A model generated the notes under the pieces. That model searched no databases. It worked only from the letters and a program-made list of their open reading frames with translations, and had not been told where the DNA came from. The position numbers and the translations under genes are program-made. 64,000 nucleotides of DNA, taken from positions 1,794,590 through 1,858,589 of the forward strand of contig JASGKJ010000003.1 of assembly GCA_047600665.1 (NCBI GenBank), written 5' to 3'. This stretch comes from Ferruginibacter sp. (GTDB taxonomy: Bacteria > Bacteroidota > Bacteroidia > Chitinophagales > Chitinophagaceae). This document shows, piece by piece, positions 2,720 through 44,816 of this stretch. Position 1 is the first letter of the stretch. Each line of letters begins with the position of its first letter.

Positions 2720-4402
2720 TTAGTTGTAACCCGGGTTCTGCTGAAACTGGTCTTTATTCTGCATCACATCAATTTCAACCTGCGGTATCGGTCTTACCAA
2801 ATGATAATCTTTGATATTGGGTGCAGCATCCAGGTTGTATTGCTTCACCCGCTCTAACAGTTTACCGGTTCTTTTCAGATCAAACCACCTTAACTGCTCC
2901 CCTACAAATTCTCTTGCACGTTCATCCAGGATAAAATCGATCGTAACATCAGCAGCAGTAATTTGCATAGCCGCTTCTTTACCCGGCACGGCAGCCCTTG
3001 TTCTTACCACATTGATAAAATCAGCGGCCTGCTGTAAATTACCGAGGTACATACTTGCTTCTGCTGCGATCATGTACATTTCAGGAAGCCTGAAAACTAT
3101 TGCATCTCTTTTGCTTTCATGCACCAGCGGACCACTGCGTGTTGGATCAGCAAATTTATTTACCTGTACATACCTGCTGCGGTCACCTTTGGGAAGACCG
3201 TTTGCTTCATACACATCATTACGGTCGAAGATGGTATATTTTCTTGATGCCCTGTAATCACTGGAAACAACCTCTTTTGTTGTGTACATAATGGTATCAC
3301 CAATATGAATATCTGCAGGTATGGTTGTTGGATCATTTGCCCACCATTCCGTTCTGAAAGAACCCCTGTAACGGGCGTCTTTTGTTTCATCATATAAATC
3401 GAGCAAATATCTTGATGGCAGGAACTGGTTCAGCGGCCTGCCATTCTCCACGTCAAAAGTGAGACCCGGCAATGCAAAATTCATTTCAGTAAAGAATGTA
3501 TGTGCCTGGTGACCACCTTCCCATAACCAGAAATAACCAAGGTCACTTCCGAGCGGACGGTCATTCAAACTGTTATCTGCGGTATAGTTCACAAACCAGA
3601 TCGCTTCTTTATTCGTGTTACCATTACTGTTAGTTCCCATTTGCCAAAGCGCTTTATAGTCCTTGATCATTTCGAAACCATAGTTTGTTATCACTTTTTT
3701 AGCCATATCAAGCGCCAGCTGGTATTCCTTGCGTGTTAAATAAACACGGGCAAGAAATGCTTCTGTTGCAGGTTGTGTTACCCTTCCGCCTGCAGGCGTT
3801 ATCTGTCCCTGCAGGTTTGTTTCAGCAGTACCCAGGTCTTCCAGGATAAGTTTGTAAACATCATCCACCGAAGCACGGGTTGCCGTCATTTCAGGGCTCT
3901 GTGTTTCTGTTGTTTTGATGGGTACTGGTCCGAAGGTTTCTACAAGGTGATAATAATAGAATGCCCGTAAAAAATGCACCTCACCAAGCCTTGTCTTTAC
4001 CGTTGCATCTGGCAGGCCAGAGCCTGGCAAACGGGTGATGGCTGCATTGCAGGCATTGATGCCTTTGTATAAACCAGCCCATACATGTATAAAGCCGGGA
4101 TCTGCTCCCTGCAGTGTATTATTGTACTCGTGGTATTGTGCGTAACCACCTCCCCAGCCGGCCCTCAACACTTCGTCTGTTCCTGCTTCTGTAAGCAGCA
4201 ACCCGATCATTTTGCCATACCAGAGCCTGCCGGGTGCATAACAGGCATTGATAAGCGTTTCAATACCGTCAGGCGTTTTATAAAGCACATCAGCCGTGGT
4301 ACCCGTTTTATTATTTTCCTCAAGGAATTTTTTACAGCTGCCCAGCAATACCAATGCTGATATAACTGTAACGAATAGTGTATATTTTTTAATTTGTTTC
4401 AT
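2720..4402 (-). CDS. susD: RagB/SusD family outer-membrane lipoprotein
   Basis: Lipobox LLGSC, GEVHFLRAFYY, FRLPEMYMIAAEA, ERAREFVGEQLRWFDLKR, C-terminal QNPGY; lies directly downstream of susC. Confidence 0.95.
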   Translation of the reverse strand: MKQIKKYTLFVTVISALVLLGSCKKFLEENNKTGTTADVLYKTPDGIETLINACYAPGRLWYGKMIGLLLTEAGTDEVLRAGWGGGYAQYHEYNNTLQGADPGFIHVWAGLYKGINACNAAITRLPGSGLPDATVKTRLGEVHFLRAFYYYHLVETFGPVPIKTTETQSPEMTATRASVDDVYKLILEDLGTAETNLQGQITPAGGRVTQPATEAFLARVYLTRKEYQLALDMAKKVITNYGFEMIKDYKALWQMGTNSNGNTNKEAIWFVNYTADNSLNDRPLGSDLGYFWLWEGGHQAHTFFTEMNFALPGLTFDVENGRPLNQFLPSRYLLDLYDETKDARYRGSFRTEWWANDPTTIPADIHIGDTIMYTTKEVVSSDYRASRKYTIFDRNDVYEANGLPKGDRSRYVQVNKFADPTRSGPLVHESKRDAIVFRLPEMYMIAAEASMYLGNLQQAADFINVVRTRAAVPGKEAAMQITAADVTIDFILDERAREFVGEQLRWFDLKRTGKLLERVKQYNLDAAPNIKDYHLVRPIPQVEIDVMQNKDQFQQNPGYN

Positions 4403-4419: not shown

Positions 4420-7400
4420 TTAAAGTGAGAAATTAAGACCGAATACCAGCTGCTTTGTCAGCGGGAATTCACCGGAACCACCCCTTTCAGGATCATAATT
4501 CTCTACTTTGCTGAATGTGAAATAATTTTTTGCTGTTACATAGAAAATAGCTGATTCAAACGGCAGCTTTTTAATGCTTGCCCTGTTCAGCGTGTACTGC
4601 AGCCTGATGTCTTTTATTTTTACAAATGAACCTGTCTGGTACCGGAGTGTGCTTAAGTACAGGTCATTACCATTTGTACGTGGCCGTGGATAAGCATTGG
4701 TTGGGTTCTCCGGTGTCCAGTAATCAACATTGGAAGTATTGAATATACCGCCGGTGTAATATGACCCTGCATAATCGCTGGAGATCATCTGGCCGATCCT
4801 CGCAAAAACCAGTACACTAAGCATAACATTCTTATAGCTTACCTGGTTGGTGATACCCGCAGTCCAGTCCGGTGTTGCTTTACCCAATACAATACGGTCA
4901 TCCGTTGCTGTTATTTTTCCATCGCCATTCAGGTCCTTCACTTTTATCTCACCGGGATTTGAATTATATCCCGTAGCCTGGTCTTTCTCGCCGGTCTGCC
5001 AAATACCCAGCTTTTGGTAATCATAGAATACCTGTAAAGGTTTACCAACAAACCATGCTTTTGAAATATCATCACCACCAACGCTCAACTGTACGATCTC
5101 TTCACGGAAAGTGGAGAAATTCATATCTGTTGTCCATTTGAAATTCTTTGAAGAAAAATTGACTGTGCTTAAATTGATGTCGATACCTCTTGTTTTTGTT
5201 TTACCAACATTATCAATGATAGAACTAAAACCGGTTGTTGTTGGCAGTATCCTTTCCATCAGCAGGTCACTTGTTTTGGTGGAATATACATCCACAGAAC
5301 CAGTGAGCCTGTTATTGAAGAAACCAAAATCAACGCCAAGGTTAAGTGATGTTGTTTTTTCCCAACTCAGTTCTTTATTGGCAACATTTTTTGGCCAGTA
5401 ACCAATAGCCGGTGTTTCATCAAAAGCGTATGGTATACGGCCAAGACCACCTTGTGTTTGATAAGGCTGTATGGCACTGTTACCTGATAAGCCGTAGCTT
5501 GCCCTCAATTTCAATTCAGAAAGAAAGTTCACTTTGCTCATGAAATCTTCATCATGAATTCTCCATGCAACGGCTGCTGATGGAAAACTAGCCCATTTAT
5601 TTCCTTCGGCCAGTACAGATGATCCGTCTGCACGGATTGAGCCTGTGAAGAGGTATTTTCCTTTATAATCATAGTTGATACGTGCAAAGCCGGATGCCAG
5701 CTGGCTTTCAACAAGGCTGCTGCTGATCCTGAGGTCAGTTGCATTGGCGCCCAGGTTATAAAACAATGCTGTTGCAAAGGGTTGGTTTTTTCCTTCAGCA
5801 GAAAAGGCCACCGTTCTGCCTTTTATTGCACTGGTTCCAACAAGTACATTCAGGTTATGATCATTAAAACTTTGTTTGTAGTTCAGTGTATTTTCCCATG
5901 TCCAGTTACGTGTTTTGATATCAGTGATAGAAGACTTGCTCATACCATTGTTCAATGATGCAAGCGTGTACAATGTGCCTTCATAAATACCCTGCTGGCT
6001 GTTGAAGATATCAATACCCATATTGGTTTTAAAAGTCAGGTTCTTTAAAATGTCCCATTGTGCAAAACCCACCATGAATATCCTGCTTGTCTTTGTATTA
6101 TTGGTATAGTTCATCGGGTCTTCATCCACCAATGGGTTCCTGTCCAGTGATCCTGGCCATGGATAAATTTTGATGGTGCCGTCATCATTATATGGTTTGC
6201 TGAAAGGCAATAATTTTCCAAGATTCCAGAAACTTGTATTACGCCTGTTCTGATCTGAGGAATTAAAATTAAGGATGGTACCAACTTTCAAAGATGGGGC
6301 GATCCTGTAATCGGCATTCAGGTGCTGCACAAAACGTTTCAATACATCATTTTTCAAAAAGCCCTGCTCCCTGAAAAACTCTGATGATAAACGCAGTGAT
6401 ATTTTATCATTGCCGCCGGATACTGCCACATGGTGACTGTTCACAAAACCATCATGCACCATTAATCCTGTCCAGTCAGTAGTTGTACCTTCTTTTATCA
6501 ACGAATAATTTGCTTTAAAAATAGAGCTGTCATCCGCCGGACTGCTCCACTGACCTGCAGCCCTGTACGCTTCACGTGTGATGGCTACATACTGATCCAA
6601 GTTAGATGGCTGTGCATATTTGCCAAGTGTATTAATACCAACATAATTACTTGCTTCTATTTTTGTTTTTCCTTTACCGCTTTTAGTAGTGATAAGGATA
6701 ACACCATTCGCACCTCTTGAACCGTAGATAGCTGTAGAAGATGCGTCTTTTAATATTTCAATCGAGGCTACATCATTTGGATTTACATCAATATAAGAAC
6801 CATATTGTATTCCATCCACCAGTACAAGCGGCTGGTTGGATGCATTGAGTGAACGGTTACCACGTACCGTAAAACTCATACCAGCACCTGTTTCACCTGA
6901 ACTGCGTACCAGGTCAAGCCCTGATACTTTGCCCTGCATGGTTTCAAGCACATTGGTCACTGGTGTGGAAGTGATCTGTTCCTGGCGCAATGAAACAACA
7001 GAACCGGTAAGATCTTTTTCTTCACACTGCCATACCCGATGATCACTACGTTATCCAGGCTTTGATTCAGTATCTTTTAATGTAATGTCAATGGATTTAC
7101 GGCTGCCGACAGTGATCTCCTGCTGTACATACCCAACATAACTGAATACTAAAATGGAGCTTGCTCCTTTTACATTGATCGAGTAGGTGCCCTTATCATT
7201 TGTAGTGGCACCACCGGTTTCATTCTTTACCGTTATGCTCACATTCGCCATTGGCTGACCCTGCTCATTTGTTACTTTACCAATGATGCTTTGCTCCGTT
7301 TCTTCTGGTCCATCTTTTTTAATAGCGATCAGGTGATCATTGATCATCTCGAAAGTAAGCCCGGCATTTTTTAGCAGCAGCTGCATCACTTCTGCAATGG

Positions 7401-39511: not shown

Positions 39512-40420
39512 ATGACTGATATGACAATGACCAAAACCATACTGCTGTCTTTCTTTACAATACTTACCTGTATAAAAGCAGCTGCACAACAGCCGGCAAA
39601 AGATACAGCCGACTTAATGAGTCAACTCGAAAATGAGGCCGCTCCTAAAACGGAGTATACCAAAGCCACATTTAAGACCACCCGCCTGGTGAATGGCCAT
39701 TCGGTGGAAACACTCGCCAAGGGTGTAATGGATGTAAAGATCTCCCACCGTTTTGGCAAACTGAATAATGGCATTTATGAAATGTTTGGGTTGGACAATG
39801 CCACCATGCGTATGGGGTTGGATTATGGCATTACCGATAATATAATGGTTGGCCTCGGCCGAAGTACTTTTCAAAAAACACTGGATGCTTTTGTAAAGAT
39901 CAAACTGCTCCGCCAGTCAGCCGGTGCAAAAAATTCACCTTTCAGTATTGTATATATCCCAACCATTGCATTGGTGACATTACGCACACAACCAAAGTTA
40001 CCCATCAAGCATAAATTATATTATGCCCACCAGCTGATCATTGGCCGCAAATTCTCCGACGCATTTTCCATGCAGCTAATGCCTACGGTAATTCACCGAA
40101 ACCTTACTGCAGTTAACAGCGATCCCAATGACACCTGGGCTATTGGTATCGGTGGACGGCAAAAACTATCAAAACGGGTAAGTTTTAATGCAGAATATTA
40201 TTACCAACTGCCGGGCACTAAAATTGCCGGCTCCACCAATTCACTTTCTTTCGGCTTTGATATTGAAACAGGTGGTCATGTATTTCAGCTGCACTTTACC
40301 AACTCCACCGGCATGACGGAAAAAACATTTGTAAGTGAGACCACCGGCAAATGGGATAAAGGCGATATCCTCTTCGGCTTTAATATTGCCCGGGTGTTCA
40401 ATATCGGCAAACGCAAATAG
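39512..40420 (+). CDS. DUF5777-like outer-membrane beta-barrel protein
   Basis: TFKTTRLVNGHSVE, ISHRFG, FGLDNATMRMG, FDIETGGHVFQLHFTN, FGFNIARVF. Confidence 0.8.
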   Translation: MTDMTMTKTILLSFFTILTCIKAAAQQPAKDTADLMSQLENEAAPKTEYTKATFKTTRLVNGHSVETLAKGVMDVKISHRFGKLNNGIYEMFGLDNATMRMGLDYGITDNIMVGLGRSTFQKTLDAFVKIKLLRQSAGAKNSPFSIVYIPTIALVTLRTQPKLPIKHKLYYAHQLIIGRKFSDAFSMQLMPTVIHRNLTAVNSDPNDTWAIGIGGRQKLSKRVSFNAEYYYQLPGTKIAGSTNSLSFGFDIETGGHVFQLHFTNSTGMTEKTFVSETTGKWDKGDILFGFNIARVFNIGKRK

Positions 40421-40440
40421 CACGAATCATATAGTTTTAT

Positions 40441-40469
40441 AAAGCCATAACATTCTTGTTATGGCTTTT
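40441..40469 (+). terminator. Intrinsic terminator of the OB-fold/YceI/beta-barrel operon
   Basis: AAAGCCATAACA-TTCT-TGTTATGGCTTT is a 12-bp stem followed by T residues. Confidence 0.8.
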
Positions 40470-40474
40470 TATAT

Positions 40475-40482
40475 TAACTTTG
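40475..40482 (+). promoter_or_regulatory. -7 element (TAACTTTG) for metH, implying a ~190-nt leader
   Basis: TAnnTTTG match directly after the terminator and ~200 bp upstream of ATG 40680. Confidence 0.7.
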
Positions 40483-40679
40483 CGCCCACTTCAGGCGGAT
40501 TTGTTTATTGTTCAGCCTGTTAAAACTCAGAACTAATAAACGAAGCATTCCTCAACAACTTCACGGATTGTTCCAGTTTATCAGTTTAATTTTTATGTAC
40601 CGGGCATAGTAATGCTATCAGCATAGTTGCGTCGCACTTTTATACTGTATACCATTATTCACCCACAAATTATTGAAGT

Positions 40680-41696
40680 ATGAGCCCAATACAGAAAGCA
40701 TTGCAGCAGCGGATACTGATTATAGATGGCGCCATGGGCACCATGATACAGCGGCATAAACCAACCGAAGCAACTTACAGGGGCGAAAGATTTAAAGACT
40801 GGCCAATAGATGTAAAAAACAACAGTGATATACTAAATCTTACCCAGCCTCAGATAATTGAAGGCATTCACCGGGAGTACCTGGAAGCAGGTGCTGATAT
40901 CATTGAGACAAACACTTTTGCTGCTACCACCATTGCGCAGGAAGATTTTAAGCTGGAAGCATTTGTACATGAGCTGAACGTGGAAGGTGCCCGTATTGCA
41001 CGCCGTGCAGCCGATGCTTATACCGCAAAGGATCCATCTAAGCCCCGCTTTGTGGCAGGTGCCATTGGGCCATTAAACCGAACATTGAGTTTATCCCCGG
41101 ATGTAAACAATCCCGGTTACCGTGCTGTAACATTTGATGAAGTGGCCAAAGCATACAAAGAACAAATAAAAGGGCTGGTAGAAGGTGGTGTAGATGTTTT
41201 ATTAATTGAAACCATCTTTGATACCCTTAATGCAAAAGCTGCCATCTATGCAGCAAAAAATTTCTTCAGGGAAAATAATATACCGGAACTGCCCATTATG
41301 ATCAGTGGTACCATCACTGATGCATCAGGCAGAACACTGAGTGGTCAAACGCTGGAAGCATTTTATACATCCGTTGCACATGCAAACCCACTAAGTGTAG
41401 GGCTGAATTGTGCATTGGGTGCAAACGAAATGCGGCCGCATATTGAGGAGCTGTCGCAAATAGCAGCCTGCCATGTATCTGCTTATCCAAATGCCGGCTT
41501 GCCCAATGCTATGGGTGAATATGATGAACAACCGCATGAAACAGCACATATACTTGAAGGATGGGCAAAAGAAGGATTCTTGAACATTGTTGGTGGCTGC
41601 TGCGGCACCACGCCGGATCATATAAAACATATTGCAGAAGAAGTAAGCAAATTCAAACCGAGAGAACTGCCCCTGATGGAAAAGGAATTAATTTAA
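40680..41696 (+). CDS. metH: Methionine synthase, N-terminal homocysteine-binding module
   Basis: [46 protein letters not shown] (Zn ligands). Confidence 0.96.
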
Positions 41697-41733
41697 CCAC
41701 AAAGGGCACTAAGAAAGCATACAAAGTTCACAA
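41696..41733 (+). repeat. Left arm of a 38-bp imperfect inverted repeat flanking the GxxExxY gene
   Basis: ACCACAAAGGGCACTAAGAAAGCATACAAAGTTCACAA matches the reverse complement of 42111-42148 at 31/38 positions with no gaps. Confidence 0.85.
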
Positions 41734-42116
41734 TGTTTACTGAAAATGACATAGCGAAGATTGTGTTTGAAGCAGGACTGAAAGTTCACAAAGCATTAGG
41801 CCCCGGGTTATTAGAAAGTGCTTATGAAGAGTGCTTATGTTTCGAGTTATCAAAAACAGGCTTATTTATAGAAAGGCAAAAATGTCTTCCGCTGATTTAT
41901 GAAGATATTAAAATGGAGGCTGGATACCGTGCTGATTTTATGATTGAAAACAAATTTATTGTTGAGATAAAAGCGATTGAAACATTAGCGGATATACATC
42001 TTGCTCAAATATTAACTTATTTGAAATTATCGAATTGCAAACTGGGTTTATTAATAAATTTTAATGTATTACTTTTTAAAGATGGGGTAAAAAGAGTTAT
42101 CAATGGTTCTTTGTGA
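41733..42116 (+). CDS. GxxExxY protein (PD-(D/E)XK-like fold)
   Basis: LGPGLLESAYEECL, RADFMIENKFIVEIKA, AQILTYLK...GLLINFN; 127 aa. Confidence 0.95.
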   Translation: MFTENDIAKIVFEAGLKVHKALGPGLLESAYEECLCFELSKTGLFIERQKCLPLIYEDIKMEAGYRADFMIENKFIVEIKAIETLADIHLAQILTYLKLSNCKLGLLINFNVLLFKDGVKRVINGSL

Positions 42117-42148
42117 ACCTTGTGTACTTACTTTGTGTCCTTAGTGGT
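42111..42148 (-). repeat. Right arm of the inverted repeat flanking the GxxExxY gene
   Basis: TTGTGAACCTTGTGTACTTACTTTGTGTCCTTAGTGGT; overlaps the gene's TGA stop codon. Confidence 0.85.
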
Positions 42149-42155
42149 AAAAAAA

Positions 42156-44816
42156 ATGAGCACTATAAAACCATACTTACGTCTCAGCGGTCTTGAACCT
42201 TTGGTCATCAGGCCCGAAACCAATTTTGTAAATGTTGGTGAGCGTACCAATGTAACCGGCAGTAAAAAATTTGCACGGCTTATTAAGGAGAACAAATACG
42301 AAGAAGCATTGAGTGTTGCACGGCAACAGGTGGAAAGCGGCGCACAGGTGATCGATGTGAACATGGACGATGCTTTGCTGGATGGCGTGAAAGCAATGAC
42401 CACTTTCCTCAACCTGCTGCAAAGCGAACCGGACATTGCCAAGATACCGGTGATGATCGACTCATCCAAGTTCGAGATCATTGAAGCCGGGTTGAAATGT
42501 GTGCAGGGCAAATGCATTGTAAACTCCATCTCCATGAAAGAGGGAGAAGCAAAATTTATTGAACAGGCATTTATCTGCCGCAGCTATGGCGCTGCTGTTA
42601 TTGTAATGGCCTTTGATGAAAAAGGACAGGCGGATACAAAAGACCGCAAAGTGGAAATTTGTCACCGGGCTTATAAGATCCTTACAGAACAGGTAGGCTT
42701 TCCACCGCAGGATATTATTTTTGACCCTAACATATTTGCCGTAGCTACCGGTTTGGAAGAACACAATAACTACGGCGTTGATTTTATAGAAGCTACAAGA
42801 GAGATAAAACAACTGATGCCGCTTACTAAAATAAGTGGTGGTGTAAGTAATTTATCTTTTTCTTTCCGCGGCAATGATCATGTAAGGGAAGCTATGCACA
42901 GCGTGTTTCTTTACTACACCATCAAAGCTGGTATGGATATGGGCATTGTAAATGCCGGACAGCTGGTTGTATATGATGAGATAGAACCTGCGTTGAGAAA
43001 TTTATGTGAAGATGTGATCCTTAACCGTAACAATGATAATAACGAGGCTACGGAAAAACTAATTGCATTTGCAGAAACAGTAAAAGCAAAAGGCAAAACA
43101 GAAGTAAAAGATGAAGCCTGGCGAAACCTGCCGGTTGAAAAACGTTTGGCGCACTCACTCGTAAATGGCATTACAGATTATATCGATATAGATACAGAAG
43201 AAGTAAGGCAAAAATCTGCAAGACCCTTAGATGTGATCGAAGGCCCGCTGATGGATGGCATGAACATCGTAGGTGATCTCTTCGGCAGCGGTAAAATGTT
43301 TTTACCCCAGGTGGTAAAGAGTGCCCGTGTGATGAAGAAAAGTGTGGCGTACTTACAACCCTTTATTGAAGCTGAAAAACAGGAAGCATCCAATGCACCC
43401 ACCGTTTTACTGGCAACAGTAAAAGGTGATGTACATGATATCGGTAAAAATATTGTGGGCGTGGTGCTGGGTTGTAATGGTTACACCGTAGTTGACCTGG
43501 GTGTGATGGTGCCCGCTGATAAAATTTTAGAAGAAGCAAAAAAATGTAATGCTGCTATTATTGGTTTATCAGGATTGATCACACCATCGCTGGATGAAAT
43601 GGTGCATGTAGCACACGAAATGAAACGCCGGGAAATGAACCTGCCGTTGCTGATTGGTGGTGCCACTACTTCCCGTATGCATACAGCGGTAAAGATCGCA
43701 CCACAATATGATAAAGGCGTGGTGCATGTACTGGATGCAAGCCGCAGCGTAACCGTGGTAAGCAGTTTATTAAGCAATGAACAGAAAGCAGATTTTCTTG
43801 CCGGTATAAAAACGGAATACACAAAGCTGGCAGATGATTTCAATAATAAAAAAGCCGTTAAGCAATTTTTACCATTTGCAGCAGCGCAACAAAATACAGT
43901 AAAAATTAACTGGGAAAATTTCAAACCTGTTCAGCCAACTTTTACAGGCGTTAAAGTTTTTGATAATTATTCTTTACAGGAAATAGCAAACTATATTGAC
44001 TGGCAGCCGTTCTTTATTGCATGGGAACTGCATGGAAAATTCCCACAAATATTAAGCGATGAAAAGGTGGGTGCAGAAGCCACCAAACTGTACAATGACG
44101 CCAACATCCTGCTTAAAAAGATCATTGATGAAAAATGGCTGACCGCCAAAGGCACGGTTGGTTTTTGGGAAGCGAAGAAAACAGCACCGGATTCTGTACA
44201 GGTAAAAGATGGTGACTCAACCATCAAATTAGAATTTTTAAGACAGCAGGTAAAGAAAGCTGCTGACCAGCCCAACATATCGCTTGCTGATTTTATCAGC
44301 CCTGGCGGCAACGACTATATGGGCGCTTTCTCTGTAACGATACAGGGCATCGATCAGCATATTAAAAACTTTGAAGCGGCCCATGATGATTACAACAAGA
44401 TCATCCTGCAGGCGCTGGCCGACCGTTTTGCAGAAGCATTTGCAGAATGCCTGCATGAAAAGACAAGAAAAGAGTACTGGGGCTACGACAAAGCAGAAGC
44501 ACTCTCCAATGAACAATTGATAAAAGAAGAGTATGCAGGCATCCGTCCTGCACCAGGCTATCCCGCCTGCCCCGATCATACAGAAAAATACAAGCTGTTC
44601 AATTTACTGGGCGGCGAAGCAAATACGGGTATCCATCTTACTGAAAGCTTAGCGATGTATCCGGCATCTTCTGTTTGCGGCTGGTATTTTGCAAATCCTG
44701 AAAGTAAATATTTTGGTGTGGGTAAAATTGATAAGGACCAGCTGGAAGACTACGCTAAACGAAAGGAGATGGATATTGATGAAGTAACGAGGTGGCTAAG
44801 GCCGATACTGGAATAA
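42156..44816 (+). CDS. metH: Methionine synthase, pterin-binding, B12-binding and reactivation module
   Basis: [26 protein letters not shown] (B12 His ligand), [22 protein letters not shown]. Start moved to MSTIKP. Confidence 0.97.

Follow-up and report, generated by a model that had tools for sequence, protein, structure and literature searches.

Why should a small nuclease-like gene, framed by inverted repeats, lie between the two halves of a methionine synthase operon? The question is raised by a 64,000-nt stretch of the Ferruginibacter sp. genome (contig JASGKJ010000003.1 of assembly GCA_047600665.1, positions 1,794,590–1,858,589), referred to as a whole below as the 64-kb window. In this window metH is split into two genes, and between them is an inserted segment of 461 bp, on the same strand as metH, that carries a gene of the GxxExxY family between two repeat arms. 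A sequence-only reading had taken the segment for a minimal mobile or intervening element whose arms pair in the mRNA and loop out the insert. The answer favoured here, with slightly better than even confidence, is a different one – that the segment is one copy of a widespread nuclease-gene cassette, and that the repeat arrays in its arms would be its own recognition sites, driving its gain, replacement and retention.

Phased motif arrays around the GxxExxY gene

The layout had been read correctly. The split metH halves, the GxxExxY gene between them, the arms that match at 31 of 38 positions, the overlaps of the arms with codons and the seven nucleotides left before the metH-C ATG were all confirmed to the base:

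40680–41696, + strand: metH-N, the homocysteine S-methyltransferase half of the split methionine synthase (PF02574, E=4.5e-103; residues 12–343 of the MetH model NF007024)
41696–41733, + strand: left arm, four units, ending on the A of the GxxExxY ATG
41733–42116, + strand: GxxExxY/PDDEXK_3 gene, 127 aa (PF13366, 136.6 bits; TIGR04256, 139.5 bits)
42109–42148, + strand: right arm, four mirrored units, covering the TGA at 42114–42116; the part in the 38-nt match is 42111–42148
42149–42155, + strand: leader of seven A's, from the cassette end to the metH-C ATG
42156–44816, + strand: metH-C, with pterin-binding, B12-binding and activation domains (PF00809, PF02607, PF02310, PF02965)

The TAA stop codon of metH-N (41694–41696) adjoins the cassette end. 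The metH-C protein scored 1504 bits against NF007024 (model positions 339–1229), and its ATG at 42156 is consistent with the starts in the 79 relatives described below, in which the empty junctions are A-rich like the seven-A leader. The insert is also more AT-rich than metH, as had been noticed, with 31.5% GC compared to 44.7% in metH-N and 43.1% in metH-C. GC at third codon positions is 0.26 in the GxxExxY gene and 0.38 and 0.42 in the metH halves.

Each arm is an array of four 7-nt units, in mirror-image orientation on the two sides of the gene:

41698–41704, + strand: left-arm unit 1, CACAAAG
41707–41713, + strand: left-arm unit 2, CACTAAG
41720–41726, + strand: left-arm unit 3, TACAAAG
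41729–41735, + strand: left-arm unit 4, CACAATG, overlapping the GxxExxY start codon
42109–42115, + strand: right-arm unit CTTTGTG, overlapping the TGA stop codon
42118–42124, + strand: right-arm unit CCTTGTG
42131–42137, + strand: right-arm unit CTTTGTG
42140–42146, + strand: right-arm unit CTTAGTG, followed by GT

Unit spacing is 9-13-9 in both arms, counted by unit starts on the left and by unit ends on the right. The match of 31 of 38 positions between 41696–41733 and 42111–42148 is a hand count without gaps, and an inverted-repeat search extended it to 47 nt at 79% (41687–41733 with 42111–42157). The local inverted-repeat score is 44; the highest value was 30 in 2000 shuffles (mean 13.1) and 32 in 2956 gene-sized intervals drawn at random from the window. 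There are no further unit clusters elsewhere in the 64-kb window, and none outside the junction in 484 kb of flanking sequence from the 79 relatives, which is mostly coding. A CACAAAG at 41787–41793, in codons H19–K20 of the gene, was considered as a fifth unit and rejected as a coincidence – the His codon at H19 is mostly CAT across lineages, and the 7-mer within the gene does not track the class of unit in the arms.

The sequence-only reading held that the arms are kept by base pairing in the metH mRNA. The insert would then be an RNA-level intervening element, looped out or processed away so that the two metH cistrons are brought together and the insertion is neutral. The minimum free energy fold of 41670–42175 does have an arm stem that closes the cassette, but the z-score of the region is only −1.47. 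Pairing was examined further in an alignment of the arms of ten orthologous cassettes, on which the 38 pairs of the window were imposed; for the control, the letters of the 3' arm were shuffled among sequences. On average 78.1% of cells were pairable, against a shuffle expectation of 77.2% (98 of 500 shuffles were as high), and a value near 78% results from the conservation of the mirrored motifs. There was no excess of covariation (0.078, compared to 0.069 in shuffled alignments; 108 of 500 shuffles were as high). Nor was a left arm a better partner for its own right arm than for that of a foreign element, with complementarity of 16.4 and 15.9 respectively (permutation p=0.29).

Within the ten orthologues, the CAC and A.G positions of the units are invariant. 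Changes in the spacers and at the fourth unit position are not compensated, and several spacer pairs are paired in one or two of the ten sequences (columns 49/109 and 50/108 in one). The 9-nt spacing within unit pairs was constant in 59 of 60 measurements, while the length of the central spacer ranges from 11 to 15 nt, and a change in one arm is not matched in the other. Because pairing is at the shuffle level, own and foreign arms pair equally well and the spacer indels are uncompensated, the inverted repeat is a by-product of mirrored, phased motifs. Judging from these alignments, what the arms conserve is a set of phased motif units (two pairs in each arm, with 9-nt spacing) rather than a stem, and the earlier claim that the arms are maintained through looping of the mRNA was not supported.

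Transcripts bear on the same explanation. No RNA runs hold the window's own sequence, and only three sediment metagenomes hold even about 5% of its words. In L005, a relative with the same cassette lineage (L numbers denote individual loci), metatranscriptome contigs of at least 99% identity span metH-N, the left arm and the gene (3889–4254 and 3996–4270), and another (4422–4622) spans the GxxExxY gene, the right arm and metH-C. The cassette is co-transcribed with both metH halves in L005, on the evidence of low-depth contigs that may include DNA. Transcription together with metH agrees with an RNA-level element. However, the contigs cross both arms and no joined metH-N/metH-C form was found among them, although contigs of this low depth, with possible carry-over of DNA, cannot show its absence. 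In addition, the two metH halves are translated from start codons of their own into separate polypeptides, so that there is no obvious need for the cistrons to be close together in the RNA. An RNA-level role for the arms is considered improbable.

A terminator-like hairpin (12-bp stem, then a T run) is at 40441–40468, about 210 nt 5' of metH-N. No riboswitch family was found between this hairpin and the metH-N start codon, and no Rfam family in 40300–42400. The insert contains no terminator-like site and no excess of sigma-70 promoters, in a scan that does not cover Bacteroidota promoters. An exact-sequence look-up of the GxxExxY and metH-N proteins of the window returned no record.

The split-metH junction in relatives

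A scan of one genome per species provided 80 Chitinophagaceae metH-N loci, at 75–82% protein identity. The junction, defined as the sequence from the metH-N stop to the metH-C ATG, was readable in 79 of these; the contig of L074 stops short of metH-C. All 79 have metH split at one and the same point, and the split therefore cannot be attributed to the cassette. The junctions differ in what they contain:

Empty junction of 0–28 nt (e.g. taaATTAAAATTGAatg): 27 of 79 genomes
Gene-less insert of 44–155 nt: 16 of 79 genomes, with about eight clear inverted unit-array foldbacks
GxxExxY gene: 18 of 79 genomes, in three lineages
ORF6N-domain gene: 8 of 79 genomes
YhcG/DUF1016 nuclease gene: 4 of 79 genomes
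Remnants of YhcG/ORF6N type, 261–325 nt, or broken small open reading frames (ORFs): 5 of 79 genomes
L018, in which the metH-C start is misplaced in the junction count and tblastn suggests a short gap: 1 of 79 genomes

All inserted junction genes lie on the metH strand. The 27 empty junctions bear out the earlier view of the gene as inserted, and from the comparison of relatives the segment is an insertion into an already split metH operon. The three lineages of junction GxxExxY proteins are 71–74%, 40–46% and 51–54% identical to the window protein.

Junction content was placed on a metH tree built from MetH-N plus MetH-C (91 rows). It requires at least 38 state changes, compared to a mean of 55 when states were shuffled, and none of 200 shuffles gave a number as low. 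One metH clade (support 96) contains all three GxxExxY lineages (L048, L055, L077), and filled L003 and L005 cluster with empty L014. The sisters L020 and L043, whose metH genes differ by a synonymous divergence (dS) of 0.21–0.25, have entirely different fillings: a 63-nt foldback in L020, and in L043 a GxxExxY cassette whose arms are doubled. In this cassette (L043, 1486–2208) each arm array is duplicated, with two per side, and the unit type of the L020 foldback is unrelated to it.

The clear foldbacks are 63–103 nt long, with units GGTTCAA in L020, L062, L068 and L071, GATTTTGAG in L076 and CGCNAAG in L002 and L079; L044 and L058 have a one-sided array only. L002 lies within the clade that bears the window's type of cassette, but its units are of the CGC type, so that it represents a replacement of the resident gene and not simply its deletion. 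Taken from the trees and junction sequences, the split-metH junction is a hot spot that has been filled, emptied or refilled many times over species-level time.

Other features of the junction inserts were observed. The ORF6N genes of L028, L054, L064, L066 and L080 do not have mirrored arrays on both sides; one to three near-perfect palindromes (TTGATATCGCAAATTGCGATATCAA, TTGAAGTCACAAATTGTGACTTCAA) stand before them instead, and in L028 TTGAAGTCACAAATTGTGACTTCAA recurs within the ORF6N gene itself, encoding LKSQIVTSK. A hairpin, AATTTCCGAGACAGTGTCTCGGAAATT, is located 5' of YhcG/DUF1016 inserts (L039, L057), with remnants in L042, L060, L067 and L072. It stands alone in L060 and with a C-terminal gene remnant in L067 – a decay series at one site. 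Some genes are broken while their arms or hairpins can still be recognised: a GxxExxY gene with a premature stop in L099, a metagenome contig; a GxxExxY gene in two ORFs in L027; and frameshifted ORF6N genes in L066 and L080.

The window copy has a quieter history. Its nearest homologues in a collection of 5.8 billion proteins are 83–87% identical, and every one occupies the metH junction, with the same spacers. All homologues from related Chitinophagaceae at 74–87% identity with readable flanks, in isolate and metagenome contigs, are also between metH-N and metH-C; among metagenome relatives at 70–72% identity, one of four is at the metH junction. On the metH tree, the clade of the window (12 rows, support 99) contains 11 such cassettes and L002. 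The ratio of non-synonymous to synonymous divergence (dN/dS) is 0.04–0.12 between pairs of orthologues, most of which are at or near saturation at synonymous sites. The dS of the GxxExxY gene is about 0.4–1 times that of the flanking metH, and its dN is as low as that of MetH. The window protein is the sole member of its 90% cluster. With homologues at the same site, saturated dS and a singleton cluster, there is no sign of recent duplication or arrival. To judge by its orthologues, the window copy is an old resident, long inherited at one site, and the purifying selection on it matches that on MetH in strength. The earlier description of the segment as a mobile element is therefore upheld in part – the junction turns over between species, but the window copy and its close relatives have long been inherited in place.

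The ends of the cassette were compared for traces of how it was inserted. In the window lineage, the metH-N stop TAA is directly before CCAC, and the GTGG of the right end is followed by TAA and A's. The left end supplies or abuts the metH-N TAA, and the right end runs into the A-rich metH-C leader. Other lineages have the ends GAACCAC...GTGGTTC or TTAACCAC...GTGGTTAA, which read as an extension of the inverted repeat. The C-terminus of metH-N is ...ELV* in filled alleles and ...ELVD* or ...ELAD* in their empty sisters, a difference that is only suggestive of co-conversion of the flanks. A CTAAAA remnant is present 3' of the right end in L003 and L005. These ends would fit either a duplication of the TAA or an insertion a few bases 5' of the original stop codon, in which case the new stop was brought in by the element.

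The GxxExxY nuclease and its family

The protein matches PF13366 over profile positions 2–117 of 117, and its bit scores for PF13366 and TIGR04256 are far above the cut-offs of 22 and 35. PDDEXK_3 and GxxExxY are its only Pfam/NCBIfam matches, and it was not assigned to the GIY-YIG proteins (cd10448). The family motif reads G25-L-L-E28-S-A-Y31 in the window protein. The D...ExK core is intact, with D68, E78 and K80 as putative catalytic residues and a candidate RecB/Cas4-type QxxxY motif at Q92...Y96. In an alignment of 38 sequences H19, G23, G25, E28, Y31, C34, Y56, D68, K80, Q92, Y96, N109, K116 and R121 are invariant, and E78 is conserved in at least 90%.

The AlphaFold model (predicted local distance difference test score 95.5) predicts a restriction-endonuclease-like alpha/beta fold. 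Its best fold match in the PDB is Cas4 SSO0001 (E=9e-4, template modelling (TM) score 0.43). The top matches – Cas4 SSO0001, lambda exonuclease and RecE – are all distant, with TM scores of 0.43–0.48, and are this weak because the GxxExxY protein is minimal. A sequence search of the PDB found no match, nor did searches of PADLOC and PHROGs. In the part of the literature open to full-text search under GxxExxY, PF13366 and PDDEXK_3, the family is rarely named, and then in passing, with no title devoted to it.

Arms were sought at 107 GxxExxY loci with enough flanking sequence: the window, the metH junctions, 80 metagenome loci and two genomes of other orders. A locus was counted as having mirrored arrays if the gene had, on each side, two or more units of a single class in mirror orientation. 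By this definition 63 of the 107 loci have mirrored arrays, compared to 2 of 5000 random intervals of the window and 0 of 241 displaced intervals. The outermost unit is usually ACCAC.../...GTGGT. The design is also found at unrelated sites. Homologues of 73–76% identity have the same arms in Dysgonomonas, between adk and obg, and in Halpernia, between hflX and a glutaminase gene. The repeat-armed architecture is, by these counts, family-wide. Flanking inverted repeats at other GxxExxY genes had been anticipated by the sequence-only reading, which named two observations that would count against it – presence of the gene at this site in all relatives, and lack of such repeats elsewhere in the family; neither was made.

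The GxxExxY gene has a lower GC content than its flanks in 90 of 90 loci (L001–L171), by 9.5 points on average, and its GC is correlated with that of the host (r=0.92). The deficit persists even in copies with saturated synonymous sites. At sites other than metH, about 69% of neighbours per side are co-oriented with the gene, and both sides are co-oriented in 20 of 39 loci, by a crude ORF-based count. About 70% co-orientation per side is typical of bacterial genes, and a bias in orientation at these sites was rejected as not clearly above this level.

The units fall into four classes, CACNAAG, CACNGAG, CGCNAAG and CGCNGAG, and these cluster on the protein tree, with 8 changes compared to 18 for shuffled classes (none of 200 shuffles was as low). 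The arrays might be bound by a factor of the host, or insulate the insert as signals for transcription or translation, and co-clustering of unit class and protein clade is expected if gene and arms merely travel together by linkage. In the window lineage the innermost units do overlap the start and stop codons, and the right arm leads into the A-rich metH-C leader. However, this overlap is absent in the other two GxxExxY lineages, and in close hosts the units at the same site differ by protein lineage, CACNAAG in one and CACAGAG in another (L048, L055, L077), which is not expected of sites for a host factor. An origin of the arrays in host signals is given slightly less weight still than a role in the RNA, and is very unlikely.

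The favoured reading is that the arrays belong to the nuclease. The cassette is a minimal RecB/Cas4-like PD-(D/E)XK nuclease gene between two mirror-image arrays of a 7-nt motif, and the encoded nuclease would recognise these units on DNA, possibly in single-stranded or hairpin form. Pairing of nuclease and site may drive gain, replacement or retention of the cassette through cutting and recombinational repair, with a logic like that of homing or of the Ssn and REP–RAYT systems.

Several points weigh against this. Movement was not seen; all comparisons are between species, at dS of at least 0.2, and no two genomes that differ in junction state are closer than a dS of 0.21. No near-identical copy at a second site is known, the window protein being alone in its 90% cluster. 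There is no clear target-site duplication, as TAA...TAA is inseparable from the A-rich context or from an extension of the inverted repeat. That unit class and protein lineage cluster together might be a matter of linkage alone, with no recognition involved. There are no orphan arrays in the window or in the 484 kb of mostly coding flanks, so that a genome-wide set of targets like that of Ssn or REP is not evident. The RNA evidence consists of low-depth metatranscriptome contigs from another species, and may include DNA. Finally, long vertical retention with dN/dS near 0.05 fits a gene useful to the host equally well as a selfish one.

This last point leads to the alternative that the protein is a host-serving, site-specific nuclease. 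Like Ssn, it would act on a short DNA motif, perhaps on single-stranded DNA in transformation, repair or defence, and would not be mobile. The arrays would be cognate sites for autoregulation or self-marking, and the turnover of the junction would be ordinary recombination and gene loss. A dN/dS of 0.04–0.12, a dN as low as MetH's despite saturation at synonymous sites, and stable inheritance at one site are all in agreement with this. There is also a precedent, as 42% of ssnA homologues have on both sides the repeat that Ssn cuts (PMC11893778). Yet three GxxExxY lineages, two unrelated gene families and gene-less foldbacks interchange at the same 10-nt gap in the manner of elements, which does not resemble a host gene being lost, and the gene is lower in GC than its flanks at every one of the 90 loci. 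Dispersed target arrays are lacking in 64 kb plus 484 kb, and the PADLOC and PHROGs searches gave no match. A host-serving role is possible, though on balance unlikely.

The favoured reading can also be taken further. GxxExxY cassettes as a whole might be pan-prokaryotic minimal selfish elements, in which a nuclease of about 125 aa reads phased pairs of units in its own arms; turnover would then be nuclease-driven homing or replacement, and purifying selection would reflect an activity that prevents loss. In this broad form the proposal is doubtful, a little more so than a host-serving nuclease.

Comparison with known systems and significance

The closest likenesses are to systems in which a small gene is framed by repeats. 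Ssn with its NTS/SRM repeats, found in Neisseria and with thousands of homologues, is likewise a small, widespread, stand-alone nuclease gene framed by repeats that vary by lineage (PMC11893778). The Ssn repeats are cleavage sites of the enzyme (PMC11893778), whereas the GxxExxY units are putative sites. Ssn has a GIY-YIG fold and single-hairpin repeats in hundreds of dispersed copies, while the GxxExxY protein is of the PD-(D/E)XK type and has phased arrays of 7-mers, with no dispersed copies in 64 kb plus 484 kb. In the REP/REPIN systems with RAYT (REPtrons), there is also a single gene between inverted copies of a presumed target repeat, and there are gene-less foldback doublets. RAYT, however, is an HUH/Y1 transposase and REP sequences are abundant throughout the genome; the GxxExxY protein is a 127-aa nuclease, and no such abundance was seen in the sequence searched.

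Three other kinds of element are similar in part. Free-standing homing endonucleases (phage seg and mob, and the PD-(D/E)XK enzyme I-Ssp6803I) are small nuclease genes between conserved genes, patchy in distribution and long-persistent, but they do not have the bracketing repeat arrays of the GxxExxY cassette. The intervening sequences of 23S rRNA (S23p ORF, excised by RNase III) have a small ORF between inverted repeats in a highly expressed unit; the cassette is not in rRNA, its stem has no support from covariation, and no excised RNA was seen in the relative. Transposons with multi-site ends (Mu, Tn7) and the derivatives known as miniature inverted-repeat transposable elements have inverted ends of several phased protein-binding units, and gene-less derivatives. 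Compared to these, the cassette lacks a transposase fold and is not present in multiple identical copies, and its ends show no clear duplication of a target site.

In the literature searched, a nuclease gene with arrays of its own recognition sites was found only for Ssn and REP/RAYT, and the GxxExxY arrays are most likely a further, putative case. The repeat-armed GxxExxY architecture itself was not found in print, and PF13366/GxxExxY ranks among the large protein families to which no function has been assigned. Lineage-specific phased arrays, conservation of motif and not of stem, and strong purifying selection make binding or cutting of CACNAAG-NN-CACNAAG by the protein directly testable. 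The split-metH junction occurs naturally in empty, filled, refilled and decayed form, a series in which the turnover of such cassettes can be studied.

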